Positions 6,437 to 60,490 are shown, numbered from the stretch's first letter. The stretch is 64,000 nucleotides of DNA from Pseudomonadota bacterium (GCA_022566895.1 JADFIA010000004.1:1647-65646), one strand, 5' to 3'. Program-made: numbers and translations. The notes: generated by a model from the sequence alone, not told the origin.

Positions 6437-8104
6437 ATGATGAAAAGACACGCCAGTATTCACGCCGTCCTTTTGCTCGCCGTGGCCTTTGCCGCCGGAC
6501 CGGCCGCAGCCTGCGAGCCACGACCTAAGCCCTACGACATCGACCAACAGAGGGCCAAGATCGTCCGCATTCCGATGCCCGTGGACAGCTCGTTCCTGAA
6601 CCAGGAGGAAAGGGCGGTGATCAACAAGCTGATCGCCGCGGCGGATTTGATGTCCGAGATCTACCTGCGCCAGGTCAGCCAGGACAACCCGAGGCTCAGG
6701 GCCGAGATCGCGGCCAGCCAGCGGCCGGATAAGGACAAGCTCCTCGACATGTTCGATCTCCACTTCGGGGTCTGGGACAGCCTTGCCCAGGGGCATCCTT
6801 TTTACGGCGACGAGCGGCGCTCGGCCGGGGCCGGCTTTTACCCCAAGGACATCACCAAGGTCGAATTTGAAAACTGGATCCGCGATCACCCTAAGGACGA
6901 GCAGGACTTTAAAAGTCTCTATACTGTGATCCGGCGCGACGGCGACAAACTCAAGGCCATCCCCTATTCGCTGCATTACCGCGAATGGCTCGAGCCGGCG
7001 GCAAAGCTTTTGAACGAAGCCGCAGACATTACCTCCAACAAGAGCCTGAAGGCGTTTTTACATCTGAGGGCCTACGCTTTTTATACCGACGACTATTATG
7101 AATCCGAACTGGCCTGGATGGATCTGGAGGGCACGCCGATCGAAGTGGTGATCGGCCCTTATGAGGTCTATACGGACCGGCTTTACGGCTATAAGGCGGC
7201 CTTCGAGGCCTTCATTACACTGCGCAACCCGGAGGAAAGCGCCGCCGTGGCCCGCTACAAGAAATATTTGCGCGACATGGAAGCCCACCTGCCGGTCGAC
7301 GAGAGTTACAAGAATTTCCGGCGCGGCTTTGCATCGCCGATCGCGGTCACCGACCAGTTGCACGGCGGCGGTGATAATGTGCCCGGCGTCCAGACCATCG
7401 CCTTCAATCTGCCCAACGACGAGCGGGTGCGCGAGGCCAAGGGGGCCAAAAAGGTGCTCCTGAAAAACGTCATCGAGGCCAAATTCAGGCTCATCCTCGG
7501 GCCGATGGCCGAGCATATCCTGGTGTCCGATCAGGCGCCGCTTTTGATCGAAAAATATATGTCCCTGGGGACCCTGTTCCATGAGCTGTCGCACAGCCTC
7601 GGGCCCGGGACGATCGAAAAAGACGGCGAGGAGACCACCGTCGGGGCCGAGCTGAAGGAGCTTTATTCGCCCCTCGAGGAAGGCAAGGCGGACATGTTGG
7701 GGGTCTATAACCTCCTCTTTATGATGGAAAAGGGCGAGCTGCCGGCGGCCGAAAAGGAGAACCTGCTGGCGACCTATTTCGTCGGCCTGTTTCGGTCCAT
7801 GCGCTTTGGCATCGACGAGGCGCACGGGCACGGGGCGGCCCTTCAGTACAGCTATCTCAAAGCCAAGCGCGCCTTTCTGGTCGACGCCGAGACGGCACAT
7901 TTCCGGATCGATTTCAAGGCCATGGAAAAGGCGCTGGAAGAGATGGTCCGCGATATGATCATGGTCCAGGGGGACGGCGATTACGCCAAGGCCAAGGCCT
8001 TCCTTGAGCGCTGGGGACATATCGACGATTGGGCGCGGACCGCGATCGAGCGGCTTTCGGACATCCCGGTCGACATTCAGCCGAGCTATCCGCCCAAGGT
8101 CTGA
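6437..8104 (+). CDS. lipoprotein, M49 (DPP III)-like zinc peptidase/hydrolase
   Basis: Signal/lipobox MMKRHASIHAVLLLAVAFAAGPAAAC. Zinc motif FHELSHSLG with downstream EEGKADMLG. Confidence 0.5.
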   Translation: MMKRHASIHAVLLLAVAFAAGPAAACEPRPKPYDIDQQRAKIVRIPMPVDSSFLNQEERAVINKLIAAADLMSEIYLRQVSQDNPRLRAEIAASQRPDKDKLLDMFDLHFGVWDSLAQGHPFYGDERRSAGAGFYPKDITKVEFENWIRDHPKDEQDFKSLYTVIRRDGDKLKAIPYSLHYREWLEPAAKLLNEAADITSNKSLKAFLHLRAYAFYTDDYYESELAWMDLEGTPIEVVIGPYEVYTDRLYGYKAAFEAFITLRNPEESAAVARYKKYLRDMEAHLPVDESYKNFRRGFASPIAVTDQLHGGGDNVPGVQTIAFNLPNDERVREAKGAKKVLLKNVIEAKFRLILGPMAEHILVSDQAPLLIEKYMSLGTLFHELSHSLGPGTIEKDGEETTVGAELKELYSPLEEGKADMLGVYNLLFMMEKGELPAAEKENLLATYFVGLFRSMRFGIDEAHGHGAALQYSYLKAKRAFLVDAETAHFRIDFKAMEKALEEMVRDMIMVQGDGDYAKAKAFLERWGHIDDWARTAIERLSDIPVDIQPSYPPKV

Positions 8105-57329: not shown

Positions 57330-57405
<76 letters not shown>

Positions 57406-57513
57406 ATCTTCGATTACTTTCGGATTTGGCTGGCCATTCTCGCCAGTCTTGAACTTTGTGTTAATGTTTACCCGCTAGATAGACACCGGGGTACTCAATC
57501 GCGGGAGTGAAGG

Positions 57514-57741
57514 ATGACCGATTCGGGCAGATTGGCGTTGGTTATAGCCGTCATCGCGGCCTACATGAGCCTGATCGCCGGCCCAGCCATGTCCTATATC
57601 GGCCCCGGGGCTGGATTAACGGCGATCGGAACGGTTCTGGCTCTCATCGGGGCGGTCGTGTTGGCGATTTTTGGTTTTGTCTGGTATCCGATAAAACGAT
57701 ACATGCGCAAACGCAGGCAAAGCCGGACCAAAGCAAAATGA
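57514..57741 (+). CDS. 75-aa two-TM protein with basic C-terminal tail
   Basis: LALVIAVIAAYMSLIAGPAMSYIGPGAGLTAIGTVLALIGAVVLAIFGFVWY followed by KRYMRKRRQSRTKAK. Its stop overlaps the next start (ATGA). Confidence 0.55.
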   Translation: MTDSGRLALVIAVIAAYMSLIAGPAMSYIGPGAGLTAIGTVLALIGAVVLAIFGFVWYPIKRYMRKRRQSRTKAK

Positions 57742-58106
57742 TCTATCTCTTTATCAGCTTCGGGCTGTTTCTCTTTGTCCTCGCCTTTCATTTTCTGAAG
57801 ATTGTTCCCGCGACAATGGACAGCGTTGCCGTGGCCCGTGGCGCCTTTGACGCGGTGCGCTCCCAGTCCCTTGGCGATGAGGAAAAGGAGGCGGCCTCCC
57901 GCAAGGCCGCGGCGCAGCTGTTCGGCGGTTTTTTTTCGATTCTCATTCGCAGCGCCGCGGCCCTGGCGATTTCTCTCTTACCCGTGCTTTTCGGTACCAC
58001 GGCCGGTCTATTTACGATCGGCGAAGCGACCGCCGCCGCCACGAATGGATATTTCGTCGGCGGTTCGCTTCTGCTGGTCTTGCCGATGATGGTTATTCTG
58101 CGATGA
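57738..58106 (+). CDS. 122-aa multi-TM membrane protein
   Basis: MIYLFISFGLFLFVLAFHF... with 3-4 hydrophobic helices. ATGA overlaps at both ends. Confidence 0.55.
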   Translation: MIYLFISFGLFLFVLAFHFLKIVPATMDSVAVARGAFDAVRSQSLGDEEKEAASRKAAAQLFGGFFSILIRSAAALAISLLPVLFGTTAGLFTIGEATAAATNGYFVGGSLLLVLPMMVILR

Positions 58107-59188
58107 CCGATAGTCGGTCGTACAACGCTTTCGAGCGCGGCTTGCACCGGCTCGCTTTTGCCGTGACACGGGCCCAGTTGGGACTAGCTGATGTTGAGGA
58201 CGGAATATTCGCGCAGCGTTTGGAACGGATCGAGATCAGGCGTCCGCTGTTCATAACCTCATTGCCGCGGGCCGGCACGACGCTTCTCTTGGAGATGCTC
58301 TGCGCCACCGGCGAATTTGCCTCCCACACCTACCGGGATATGCCTTTTGTGCTCTGTCCTATGATTTGGGATCGGCTGTCGCGAGGGTTTCGAAAAGCGG
58401 AGATGCGGCGCCAGCGGGCCCATGCGGACGGTATGGAAATTGGTTTCGACAGCCCGGAAGCGCTGGAAGAAGTTATCTGGAAGCGCTTCTGGCCAGAAAA
58501 ATATGGCGACACCAGCATCGCCCTGTGGTCGGCGGCCGATCGAGATGTCGATTTTGAGGATTTCCTGCAAAAACACATGACCAAGATCGTCGCCCTGCGA
58601 AGTGTTGCCGATACGGATAAATCGAGGCGCCGCTATGTCTCCAAAAACAATGCGAATATTGCGCGCATTGAACTTATTGGCGCGCTTTTCCCGGACGCGG
58701 GGTTCCTAATCCCGTTTCGCAATCCTGCCGACCATATTTCATCGCTATTGAGGCAACACCAACGCTTTTCGGATTTGCACGCCGGCGACGCTTTTGCCCG
58801 CGACTATATGCGATGGCTGGGACACTTTGAGTTTGGCCATCTCACCAGACCGCTTGATTTCGACCGATGGTTCACCGGCGCTCGGCAGCTGGAGGCCGGG
58901 GACCCGGGGTTTTGGGCGGGTTATTGGCTGGCGGCTTATTCACATCTTTTGGGATTGGCGGCGGACCAAGTCGTGTTGATCGATTACGATCGGCTGTGCC
59001 GGGAGCCTGAGGAAACGCTGGCCCGTCTGGCTCTAAAATTGGGGCTCGACGATCCTAACCGTTTGATCGCCCAAGCGGGGCGCTTGCGGTCGCCAACAGG
59101 ATACGAGGCGACCGATCTGGGAGTCCCAACCGGCATCCTGGAGGCCATCAATGAAACCCATAAGCAATTGGTTGAAAGCGCTATTTAG
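58103..59188 (+). CDS. PAPS-dependent sulfotransferase family protein (Sulfotransfer_3-like)
   Basis: 5'-PSB loop ITSLPRAGTTLLLEML. 3'-PB region YVSKNNANIARIELIGALFPDAGFLIPFRNPADHISSLL. Confidence 0.75.
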   Translation: MTDSRSYNAFERGLHRLAFAVTRAQLGLADVEDGIFAQRLERIEIRRPLFITSLPRAGTTLLLEMLCATGEFASHTYRDMPFVLCPMIWDRLSRGFRKAEMRRQRAHADGMEIGFDSPEALEEVIWKRFWPEKYGDTSIALWSAADRDVDFEDFLQKHMTKIVALRSVADTDKSRRRYVSKNNANIARIELIGALFPDAGFLIPFRNPADHISSLLRQHQRFSDLHAGDAFARDYMRWLGHFEFGHLTRPLDFDRWFTGARQLEAGDPGFWAGYWLAAYSHLLGLAADQVVLIDYDRLCREPEETLARLALKLGLDDPNRLIAQAGRLRSPTGYEATDLGVPTGILEAINETHKQLVESAI

Positions 59189-59215
59189 TTGGACTCCGCA
59201 AAAGGTGGAAGGGCG

Positions 59216-60490
59216 ATGAAAGAGAAGCACGCAAGATATCTATTCCTGTTCTCGGTGGCGTTTCTGGCCTATTTGACCGGCGTCCTGACCGGCGCCTTCG
59301 AGCTACCGCCCTATAAGCTCGTCAGCTCCTCAATTCGCGATGTGGCGGGTTTCGTGATCCACTGGAAAAACGATTTGGGGATCGAACCGACCCGGCATCT
59401 GTATCGAGGGCAGAAGTCCCGCACAGTCTGGAACATCGTCGATCCCCAGCGTATGTCCAAGGGTCTTAGAGTGGTCGCCAGCGTGACGCCAAGCCATGAC
59501 GCTTTATACGGCGTGCGCCTGTTTGATCAGGACGGAAACGAACTGCATTACTGGCCGGTTCATTATGACCGCCTGGATCCCGACGGCAGAAGCCCGAATA
59601 ATATCTTCCTGCATGGCTTTTCGGTCTTCGAGGATGGAGCGATTGTTGTCAATTTTGACCGCGGCGGTGCCCTGGCCAAGATCGACGCCTGTGGCAATAC
59701 GCTTTGGAAGCTGGGCGGCGGCTTCCATCATCTCGTAAACCGGTCCTACGACGGCTCAATATGGGCTTGGCAATACCGTACGGACTATACTTTCGATCAC
59801 TGGCTCGTCCAGATAGACCCTGTCAGCGGGGATTTTTTACGCAGAATCTCTCTGATTGAGGACATCATACTGAAACCGGACCAAATGGGAATCTTTGGCG
59901 TCCTACGTTTTGACGAAGTGACTCCCTCACGATACCAGTCTGACCCATTTCACCCCAATGATGTTGAGATACTGGGTCCCGACAAATCGGACGCCTTTCC
60001 GGAGTTTGGTACAGGAGATATAATGATCAGCCTGCGTAGCCTCAATTTGGTGGCGGTCCTGGATTCGGAAAGTCTGAAGGCAAAGTGGTATCAACACGGT
60101 CCCTGGCACCGCCAGCACGACCCGGACTTCCAGCCCGATGGAACGATTACTGTCTTTGACAACCGCCTCGATCTCGGCCAGTCGCAAATCGTCAGGATCG
60201 ATCCCCTAAGCGGTGAGTGGGCGAGCCTGTTCCGCGGCAGCGACGAGATTCCCTTCTATACCCGCATGCGCGGTCAGCATCAGCTGTTAGAGAACGGCAA
60301 TCTGTTGCTGACTCCAGCCAACAGCGGCCGGGTTCTGGAGGTTTCGCCGCAAGGCAAGCTTGTGTGGGAATATCAAAACGTCTTCGATGAGACGAGAAAC
60401 GGCGTCGTCAGCATGGCCATGTTGGTACCCGAAGATTTCTTCGCGCCCGGTGCTTTGACCTGTCCTTCTCGTCTCTCAACCGGCGGCTAG
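59216..60490 (+). CDS. membrane-anchored arylsulfotransferase (ASST)-like beta-propeller protein
   Basis: N-terminal anchor YLFLFSVAFLAYLTGVLTGAF. FHPNDVEIL, GDIMISLRSLNLVAVLDSESLKAKW and HRQHDPDFQPDGTITVFDN resemble ASST family signatures. ATG at 59216 follows GGTGGAAGGG (an alternative TTG lies at 59189). Confidence 0.6.
   Translation: MKEKHARYLFLFSVAFLAYLTGVLTGAFELPPYKLVSSSIRDVAGFVIHWKNDLGIEPTRHLYRGQKSRTVWNIVDPQRMSKGLRVVASVTPSHDALYGVRLFDQDGNELHYWPVHYDRLDPDGRSPNNIFLHGFSVFEDGAIVVNFDRGGALAKIDACGNTLWKLGGGFHHLVNRSYDGSIWAWQYRTDYTFDHWLVQIDPVSGDFLRRISLIEDIILKPDQMGIFGVLRFDEVTPSRYQSDPFHPNDVEILGPDKSDAFPEFGTGDIMISLRSLNLVAVLDSESLKAKWYQHGPWHRQHDPDFQPDGTITVFDNRLDLGQSQIVRIDPLSGEWASLFRGSDEIPFYTRMRGQHQLLENGNLLLTPANSGRVLEVSPQGKLVWEYQNVFDETRNGVVSMAMLVPEDFFAPGALTCPSRLSTGG

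Follow-up and report, generated by a model that had tools for sequence, protein, structure and literature searches.

Why would a bacterium encode two chemically different sulfotransferases side by side, together with two very small membrane proteins, and how might sulfate pass between them? The question is raised by positions 57,406 to 60,490 of a 64,000-nucleotide stretch of DNA from a Pseudomonadota bacterium (GCA_022566895.1 JADFIA010000004.1:1647-65646), called the window here. Four same-strand open reading frames (ORFs), designated g1, g2, g3 and g4, lie directly 3' of a tRNA-Ala(GGC) gene in this region. These ORFs make up one copy of an inner-membrane sulfation machine of four components that is widespread and has been maintained vertically. 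It combines a sulfotransferase dependent on 3'-phosphoadenosine-5'-phosphosulfate (PAPS; g3), its membrane anchor (g2), a PAPS-independent enzyme related to Cpz4 and to the aryl-sulfate sulfotransferases (ASSTs; g4), and a short peptide with an invariant tyrosine (g1). PAPS is confined to the cytoplasm and is absent from the periplasm, and we know of no established route for sulfating molecules in the PAPS-free bacterial periplasm. The reading that best fits the module is a relay that would carry sulfate across the inner membrane, and it is put forward tentatively.

The two sulfotransferases and the small membrane proteins

The last gene of the block, g4 (59216-60490, + strand; 424 aa from its ATG), is identified from sequence motifs and a structural model as a PAPS-independent sulfotransferase of the Cpz4/ASST type with a complete predicted catalytic site. 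The protein matched the Pfam family Arylsulfotran_2 (PF14269) at 1.5e-34 (120.3 bits against a cut-off of 27), scored just below the cut-off for Arylsulfotrans (PF05935; 22.4 versus 24.2) and gave no meaningful match in NCBIfam. Its AlphaFold2 (AF2) model, with a predicted local distance difference test (pLDDT) score of 86.8, contains a beta-propeller that follows an N-terminal transmembrane (TM) helix and a juxtamembrane helix. Among solved structures, Foldseek ranked Cpz4 first (9KF6/9KF4; 2e-13, TM-score 0.55) and the E. coli ASST next (3elq/3ets; ~1e-11, TM-score ~0.51). Cpz4 was also the sole significant match in a sequence-profile search of the PDB (3.6e-5). The propeller is probably periplasmic, held by the single N-terminal helix, because a basic N-terminus precedes that helix and the positive-inside rule then places the remainder of the protein outside the cytoplasm.

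In the ASST of E. coli CFT073 (EcAST), the active site is formed by His436, the residue that is sulfurylated, and by His252, His356, Asn358 and Arg374 (PMC13426309). The published numbering equals precursor numbering minus 27, as confirmed on the EcAST sequence. The two proteins share ~14% identity, and residues were matched by motif mapping and an unfiltered hidden Markov model (HMM) alignment; hhalign aligned the wrong region (11% probability). In the HMM alignment, RQH-DPDFQPDGTITVFDN of g4, containing His301 (codon at 60116-60118), lies opposite YTQH436-TAWISSKGTLTIFDN of EcAST (RQH301DPDF...TVFDN against YTQH436TAWI...TIFDN), and it also aligns with the QHD motif of Cpz4. By motif comparison, not 3D superposition, FH246PN248DVEIL...ISLR274 corresponds to AH356VN358SIAY...LSSR374, and FHH172LVNRSYDGS to ATH252ESIETPNGT. 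Across 20 diverse homologues of g4, H172, H246, N248, R274 and H301 are invariant, as are C159 and C416. The protein therefore resembles EcAST (3ELQ) in its beta-propeller, catalytic histidine, His/His/Asn/Arg set and conserved cysteines, and in its predicted extracytoplasmic location. Unlike EcAST, it has no N-terminal beta-sandwich domain, is TM-anchored instead of soluble, and belongs to PF14269 instead of PF05935. The dsbL and dsbI genes of the EcAST operon are absent beside g4. According to a review (PMC13426309), it is largely unknown what bacterial aryl sulfotransferases act on in nature and what purpose they serve in the cell, and the accessible literature does not describe the function of PF14269 beyond family listings.

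The third gene, g3 (58103-59188, + strand; 361 aa), is assigned from its motifs and modelled fold as a PAPS-dependent sulfotransferase. It matched Pfam Sulfotransfer_3 at 1.2e-20 (75 bits, cut-off 27); NCBIfam returned no meaningful match and an exact-sequence look-up returned none. The 5'-phosphosulfate-binding motif (5'-PSB; L54-P-R56-A-G58-T59-T60) and the 3'-phosphate-binding motif (3'-PB; R206-x-P208...S214) are invariant among 73 locus-derived and 28 database homologues, and K181-N182 is invariant as well. With the AF2 model (pLDDT 88.3) as query, all top Foldseek matches were sulfotransferases. The mycobacterial Stf1 (5.8e-9) and Stf9 were closest, and they were followed by TPST1/2 (rank 3-17, ~1e-6, TM-score ~0.4-0.5) and by the sulfotransferase domains of CurM and olefin synthase. 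At the sequence level g3 matched TPST1 with an E-value of 0.7, in the 5'-PSB region only.

Immediately upstream, g2 (57738-58106, + strand; 122 aa) has three hydrophobic segments. It gave nothing above threshold in Pfam and no meaningful match in NCBIfam. In 49 of 75 module loci, g2 and g3 form a single in-frame ORF of ~500 aa, and for this reason g2 is assigned as a 3-TM membrane anchor of the PAPS enzyme. The loop charges (6.0 Lys/Arg per sequence in loop 1 and 0.2 in loop 2) predict an N-out/C-in topology that would place the C-terminus of g2, and hence g3, on the cytoplasmic face. The two enzymes of the module are thus predicted to face different compartments, one on each side of the inner membrane.

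The first gene, g1 (57514-57741, + strand), encodes 75 aa and likewise gave nothing above threshold in Pfam and no meaningful match in NCBIfam. Its family is large, with 2793 clusters at 50% identity (E<=1e-3) and 1333 at E<=1e-10, the best 150 of which all measure 64-131 aa. In the sources these homologues are named as hypothetical or carry unrelated automatic labels. The alignment divides the protein into two parts. The region preceding the conserved motif (median 26 aa) varies in sequence and length, begins with basic residues and ends in A-x-A (119/120 database homologues and all module loci). Position -3 is Ala in 112/119 homologues and position -1 in 114/119, position -2 is variable, and a tyrosine occupies +1 in every one of the 119. 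Such a variable stretch, ending in A-x-A before an invariant tyrosine, is typical of Sec-type signal peptides that are cleaved, and g1 also displays a basic n-region, a hydrophobic h-region and small residues at -3 and -1. On these sequence statistics, the first 27 codons (MTDSGRLALVIAVIAAYMSLIAGPAMS, 57514-57594, + strand) are predicted to encode a cleavable signal peptide, with a signal peptidase I site after A-M-S27.

Mature g1 (57595-57741, + strand; predicted ~48 aa, Tyr1-IGPGAGLTAIGT) would begin with Tyr28 (codon at 57595-57597) and contains one TM helix, the segment GFVWYPIKR and a basic tail. Its consensus across phyla is Y-[V/I]-G-P-G-A-G-L-[T/S]-A-I-G-T, a TM helix, G-F-V-W-Y-P-x-K-R and a basic tail. 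Invariant positions are Y28, G30, P31, G32, A33, G34 and L35, then G54, F55, W57, Y58, P59 and R62, and the TM helix has invariant G39, A43 and G54. Identity of the mature part of g1 is 60-80%, far above the ~45% of the enzymes. The predicted topology is N-out/C-in, which would place the N-terminal tyrosine, borne by a flexible Gly/Pro stretch, at the periplasmic surface of the membrane. Tyr28 is flanked by A-x-A and VGPGAG, with no acidic residues. The insertion and architecture of procoat-type proteins are well established, and g1 resembles M13 procoat in its predicted cleavable signal peptide, short periplasmic N-terminus, single TM helix and basic C-terminal tail. The small size of g1 implies post-translational insertion, as for procoat. 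Unlike M13 procoat, g1 is cellular and sulfotransferase-linked and has no sequence relationship to it, and its periplasmic segment would be uncharged unless modified.

The genes are tightly spaced. ATGA stop/start overlaps join g1 to g2 (57738-57741) and g2 to g3 (58103-58106), and a gap of 27 nt with a AAGGTGGA ribosome-binding site separates g3 from the ATG of g4. An alternative TTG start for g4 exists at 59189; database homologues start at a methionine equivalent to the ATG.

A sequence-only reading of this stretch had already proposed a translationally coupled block of two tiny membrane proteins, a PAPS-type sulfotransferase and an ASST-like propeller. ORF calling and ARAGORN confirmed the four genes, both ATGA overlaps and the tRNA. 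Both PAPS-binding motifs are present in g3, with a Sulfotransfer_3 score of 75 bits, g4 matches Arylsulfotran_2, and the three motifs quoted for it are ASST active-site motifs. The coding nature of the small ORFs is confirmed by the size of the g1 family and by the presence of g2 at every module locus. The length, YIGPGAGL motif and basic tail given for g1 were correct; the assignment of two TM helices was not, since the first hydrophobic stretch is predicted to be the signal peptide and one TM helix remains. The two tiny membrane proteins are therefore better described as a sulfotransferase anchor (g2) and a single-pass, signal-peptide-bearing peptide with an invariant N-terminal tyrosine (g1).

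Co-inheritance of the four genes

The distribution of the module was determined in two independent samples. A pattern scan using one genome per species found 244 genomes with a g4 relative, and the best 80 were examined by tBLASTN and a g2 HMM applied to stop-to-stop translations. All four genes occurred together on one strand in ~75 of these 80 genomes, and the g2 profile matched 75/75 module loci (E 1e-24 to 1e-43). The usual order is g1-g2-g3-g4, five loci have g4-g1-g2-g3, and each locus carries one copy of g1. The hosts belong to the Rhodobacterales, Rhodospirillales, Hyphomicrobiales, Halomonas, Billgrantia and Nitrospirales and include a Fibrobacteraceae metagenome-assembled genome (MAG), covering Alpha- and Gammaproteobacteria and beyond.

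The second sample consisted of metagenome contigs anchored on g1. There, g2 followed g1 in 51 of the 58 loci that extended far enough, and g3 lay downstream in 28 of 33. Among the 22 loci with at least 3.3 kb 3' of g1, 17 contained g2, g3 and g4 (g4 downstream in 8 and upstream in 9), two had no g4 and three had no g3. The proposal that these genes form a dedicated, membrane-associated sulfation module is supported by this co-localisation, with a sulfate relay as the best reading of its function. Searches of the accessible literature turned up no account of the module, of g1 or of g2.

Several loci depart from the common arrangement. Pairs of g1 and g4 with no g2-g3 in the available flanks were found at L114 3609-5256, L128 285-1932, L117 992-2513 and L142 1407-3083. 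Three of these pairs lie on low-GC contigs (37-50% G+C) and the fourth, L142, on a contig of 70% G+C; all keep the entire g1 motif set, including WYPxKR. In a related genome (L087), whose g1 is 85% identical to that of the window, the module g4 is reduced to a 116-aa remnant (7705-8055) that retains an intact N-terminus and then goes out of frame. A Magnetospiraceae MAG (L016 4829-5533, - strand) carries an orphan g4, and two genes away is a 234-aa protein with a PRTGTTL PAPS-loop motif, which may be a different PAPS sulfotransferase partner.

A candidate sulfate relay and competing readings

A precedent for the pairing of such enzymes is found in caprazamycin biosynthesis. As described in PMC4257720, which cites Tang et al. 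2013, Cpz8 sulfates triketide pyrones produced by the type III polyketide synthase (PKS) Cpz6, and Cpz4 moves the sulfate to the antibiotic. On that account, the earlier statement that no described pathway pairs a PAPS-dependent sulfotransferase with an aryl-sulfate-type one does not hold. The module resembles Cpz8/Cpz4 in encoding a PAPS sulfotransferase and a PAPS-independent ASST together, and it would share the logic of PAPS to aryl sulfate to final acceptor; Cpz4 is also the closest solved structure and PDB sequence to g4. Unlike the Cpz system, the module has no PKS or other carrier gene, either in the block or among the clusters of recurrent neighbours compiled from 87 loci. Its components are all membrane proteins, with the two enzymes predicted on opposite sides of the inner membrane, and it lies outside an antibiotic cluster. 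The tyrosine peptide g1 and the anchor g2 have no Cpz counterpart.

The reading preferred here is a two-step sulfate relay across the membrane in which the g1 tyrosine would serve as the phenolic carrier, analogous to the passage from Cpz8 through a phenolic carrier to Cpz4. We regard it as a serious candidate that stops somewhat short of being probable. ASST chemistry requires an aryl-sulfate donor, so a phenol is needed as carrier, and g1 is proposed for this role because its invariant tyrosine is the only phenol that the module encodes. First, g2-g3 would use PAPS on the cytoplasmic side to sulfate Tyr28 of the 75-aa g1 precursor. The precursor would then insert post-translationally in a hairpin-type manner, and cleavage by signal peptidase would expose sulfo-Tyr1 in the periplasm. 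Finally, g4 would receive the sulfuryl group from sulfo-Tyr1 on its His301 and hand it on outside the cytoplasm; the likeliest acceptor would be a hydroxyl group carried by a glycan or glycolipid of the envelope. Each g1 molecule would be spent for each sulfate transferred. Relative to a Cpz-type relay, the module would add membrane tethering of all parts, enzymes on opposite sides and a conserved tyrosine peptide.

The relay is supported by gene neighbourhoods, in which g1 adjoins g4 even where g2-g3 is missing (L114, L117, L128, L142), and by the modelled fold of g3, which has protein-tyrosine sulfotransferases among its nearest matches. ASSTs are also reported to be active on peptides that contain tyrosine (PMC13426309). 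Further points in its favour are the co-inheritance of the four genes, the g2-g3 fusion, the predicted topologies of g2 and g4, the invariant active-site residues of g4 and PAPS motifs of g3, the closeness of g4 to Cpz4, and the A-x-A, +1 tyrosine and high conservation of g1; the glycan-related neighbours described below hint at the acceptor. Similarity to TPST1/2 is weak and extends to the Sulfotransfer_3 assignment, the PR[AS]GTTL 5'-PSB loop and the short invariant-tyrosine peptide gene adjoining g3. RaxST is a bacterial tyrosine sulfotransferase and RaxX is its peptide substrate. Unlike the TPST and RaxST systems, g1 is membrane-anchored, its tyrosine lies in a Gly/Pro-rich rather than acidic context, and no peptidase-containing ABC exporter is present. 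A more specific form of the relay would have g1 act as a ribosomally made, procoat-like "sulfate shuttle peptide" whose sulfotyrosine donates to envelope molecules via g4. This we consider doubtful, and the accessible literature does not describe sulfotyrosine as an ASST donor.

Several observations weigh against such a relay. Signal-peptide cleavage is predicted from sequence statistics, tyrosine sulfation of g1 is hypothetical, and a protein carrier used once would be costly. The VGPGAG context of the tyrosine is not acidic, in contrast to TPST and RaxST substrates. No substrate is known for Stf1 or Stf9, the nearest folds of g3, and the similarity to TPST is modest (~1e-6, TM-score ~0.4-0.5). 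The g1-g4 pairs show that a neighbouring PAPS enzyme is not needed for g1 to function with g4. The relay leaves unexplained another invariant tyrosine (W57-Y58-P59), predicted at the cytoplasmic interface, and no conserved acceptor-pathway gene lies beside the module in this window.

The cost of a single-use carrier would be avoided if g2-g3 instead sulfated a membrane-soluble phenol or lipid at the inner leaflet, for example a quinol-like or other phenolic lipid produced elsewhere, which would then flip and feed g4. A recyclable lipid would be catalytic and cheap, both enzymes are membrane-tethered, and the phenol of the Cpz relay is a small molecule. In this case g1 would be a structural or activating subunit of g4, or part of a flipping device, and the invariant small residues G39, A43 and G54 of its TM helix suggest helix packing. 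This explanation is unlikely in our assessment: genes for making a carrier, for example a PKS gene, are not conserved beside the module, and the invariant +1 tyrosine and flexible GPGAG segment are left unexplained.

The second tyrosine acquires a meaning if g1 is not a carrier but the end product, that is, a membrane-anchored sulfotyrosine peptide made by g4 and/or g3, sulfated at its N-terminus and perhaps also on the cytoplasmic side, and serving as a surface-charge or signalling device. Tyr1 would then lie near g4 and Tyr58 (WYP) near g2-g3. The existence of g1-g4 pairs without g2-g3 is consistent with this proposal, as is the position of g1 at the head of most operons, like a substrate of the RiPP type, whose peptides are made by the ribosome and modified after translation. 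ASSTs are, in addition, reported to sulfate tyrosine peptides (PMC13426309). We nevertheless consider an end-product role improbable, since g4 would require an external aryl-sulfate donor, the consistent keeping of both a PAPS enzyme and an ASST would be hard to account for, and neither a release protease nor an exporter is present.

A similarly low probability is given to the proposal that each enzyme works on its own on a shared glycoconjugate of the envelope. Here, g2-g3 would sulfate a lipid-linked precursor at the cytoplasmic face, and g4 would remodel the exported polymer in the periplasm by relocating its sulfate, stripping it off or supplying more from scavenged aryl sulfates, with g1 as an accessory subunit. 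Glycan-related neighbours in some lineages and lone g4 paralogues in glycan clusters, both described below, point in this direction, as does the related genome L087, which lost the module g4 and kept g1-g3. No glycosyltransferase or flippase accompanies the module across phyla, however, and g1 is again left unexplained. Sugar sulfates are, moreover, poor donors in ASST chemistry.

Genomic setting and envelope glycans

The position and composition of the block had suggested horizontal acquisition at the tRNA. The tRNA-Ala(GGC) gene (57330-57405, + strand; ARAGORN) lies outside the module and occupies the same place in L087. It is followed by a 108-nt leader (57406-57513, + strand) that contains an imperfect inverted repeat at ~57428-57448 (GGCTGGC-cattctc-GCCAGTC) and a GGAG-type ribosome-binding site before the ATG of g1. 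The leader is nearly identical in L087 despite divergence of the proteins to ~85%. An Rfam scan matched the tRNA alone and assigned no family to the leader, and a promoter/terminator scan of this region was uninformative. The repeat may be a tRNA 3' processing element, a terminator or an operon regulator.

Composition shows a mild shift. The reported contrast of 47-52% versus 70% G+C came from single 60-nt lines; over the full lengths, G+C is 0.562 for the block and 0.599 for the window. The block does fall within the lowest 2% of 3-kb windows by G+C. The G+C content of third codon positions (GC3) is 0.64-0.69 in the module genes compared to 0.709±0.048 in 48 other ORFs (z = -0.4 to -1.45), a deviation of less than 2 s.d. 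that is shared by core genes, with rpsA equally low at 0.566 G+C. Windowed G+C and GC3 do not mark the block as foreign. Of the conditions that the sequence-only reading had named as refuting it, this compositional one alone goes against that reading: g4 does match an ASST model, the four genes co-localise in ~75 of 80 genomes and the small ORFs are conserved.

Gene order argues in the same direction. L087 has the order rpsA-cmk-FYDLN-tRNA-Ala(GGC)-g1-g2-g3-(g4 remnant)-adh_short-DLH-aminotransferases, which is the window order on both flanks. No downstream copy of the tRNA 3'-end repeat was found in the window, and no integrase domain occurs among the called right-flank genes, which have adh_short, DLH and aminotransferase domains instead. 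The expected marks of a genomic island, namely an integrase, a 3'-end repeat, atypical composition and absence from relatives, were thus not observed. Adjacency to a tRNA as a general property of the module was considered and rejected, as a tRNA lies within 1 kb of only 2 of 75 modules elsewhere.

One contig of the same species complicates this picture. The match between metagenome contig L001 (99% identical) and the window starts at the 3' end of tRNA-Ala and covers nothing to its left. The break lies at window 57400-57415 and L001 4400-4430, with a short CCACCA-like remnant at the junction, and on its left side an Oxidored_molyb (molybdopterin oxidoreductase) gene and a 107-aa gene replace rpsA-cmk-FYDLN-tRNA. 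Either the contig is an assembly chimera, or the strain has undergone a rearrangement or an insertion at the tRNA. L001 keeps the module and right flank together, so any insertion or rearrangement lies to the left of the module. A recently acquired low-GC island inserted at tRNA-Ala is therefore very improbable and largely refuted: the low G+C rank of the block and the L001 break are outweighed by a composition shared with core genes, two-sided synteny in a relative at ~85% protein identity, metabolic right-flank genes with no downstream repeat, and the linkage retained in L001.

Neighbouring genes provide hints of a glycan acceptor. The absence of adjacent glycan genes noted by the sequence-only reading holds for this window and not for many other loci. 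In ~20 Rhodobacterales loci (for example L022 93-4957, L054 9685-14627 and L023 2195-3649) the module adjoins genes for AsmA-like, TMEM260-like/PMT_2 GT-C glycosyltransferase and DUF4185 proteins, and in six loci a HAD-UbiA fusion is also present. DUF4185 includes endo-D-arabinofuranases, and UbiA-type enzymes make decaprenyl-phospho-ribose; with such neighbours, a candidate for the acceptor would be an envelope glycan resembling arabinan. Separately, L004 (6631-9245), from the same related genome as L087, carries two tandem full-length g4 paralogues beside NeuB, a CMP-sugar synthetase, an Acyl_transf_3-SGNH O-acyltransferase and Wzy_C, which is a surface-polysaccharide context. The module was also found in Halomonas maura CECT 5298 (L059) and H. 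stenophila CECT 7744 (L064). These species are known as producers of sulfated exopolysaccharide (mauran), and a link to the module is unsubstantiated and offered as a lead only. According to a review, some halophile exopolysaccharides are sulfated.

The module is common in marine and soil Proteobacteria, Nitrospirales and other groups: relatives of g4 occur in at least 244 species-level genomes, and g1 forms more than 1300 clusters (E<=1e-10). Neither g1 nor g2 belongs to a described family. In the module, a complete ASST-type enzyme is consistently encoded with a PAPS enzyme predicted on the opposite side of the membrane and with a peptide whose sole invariant functional group is a phenol. 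If the relay is correct, it would be a route for exporting activated sulfate and would account for some of the sulfation of bacterial envelopes and exopolymers, and its coupling of PAPS to aryl sulfate would be of use in biocatalysis. Should g1 prove to be a shuttle peptide, sulfuryl groups would for the first time be known to travel on a protein, and bacteria would have a general means of extracytoplasmic sulfation.

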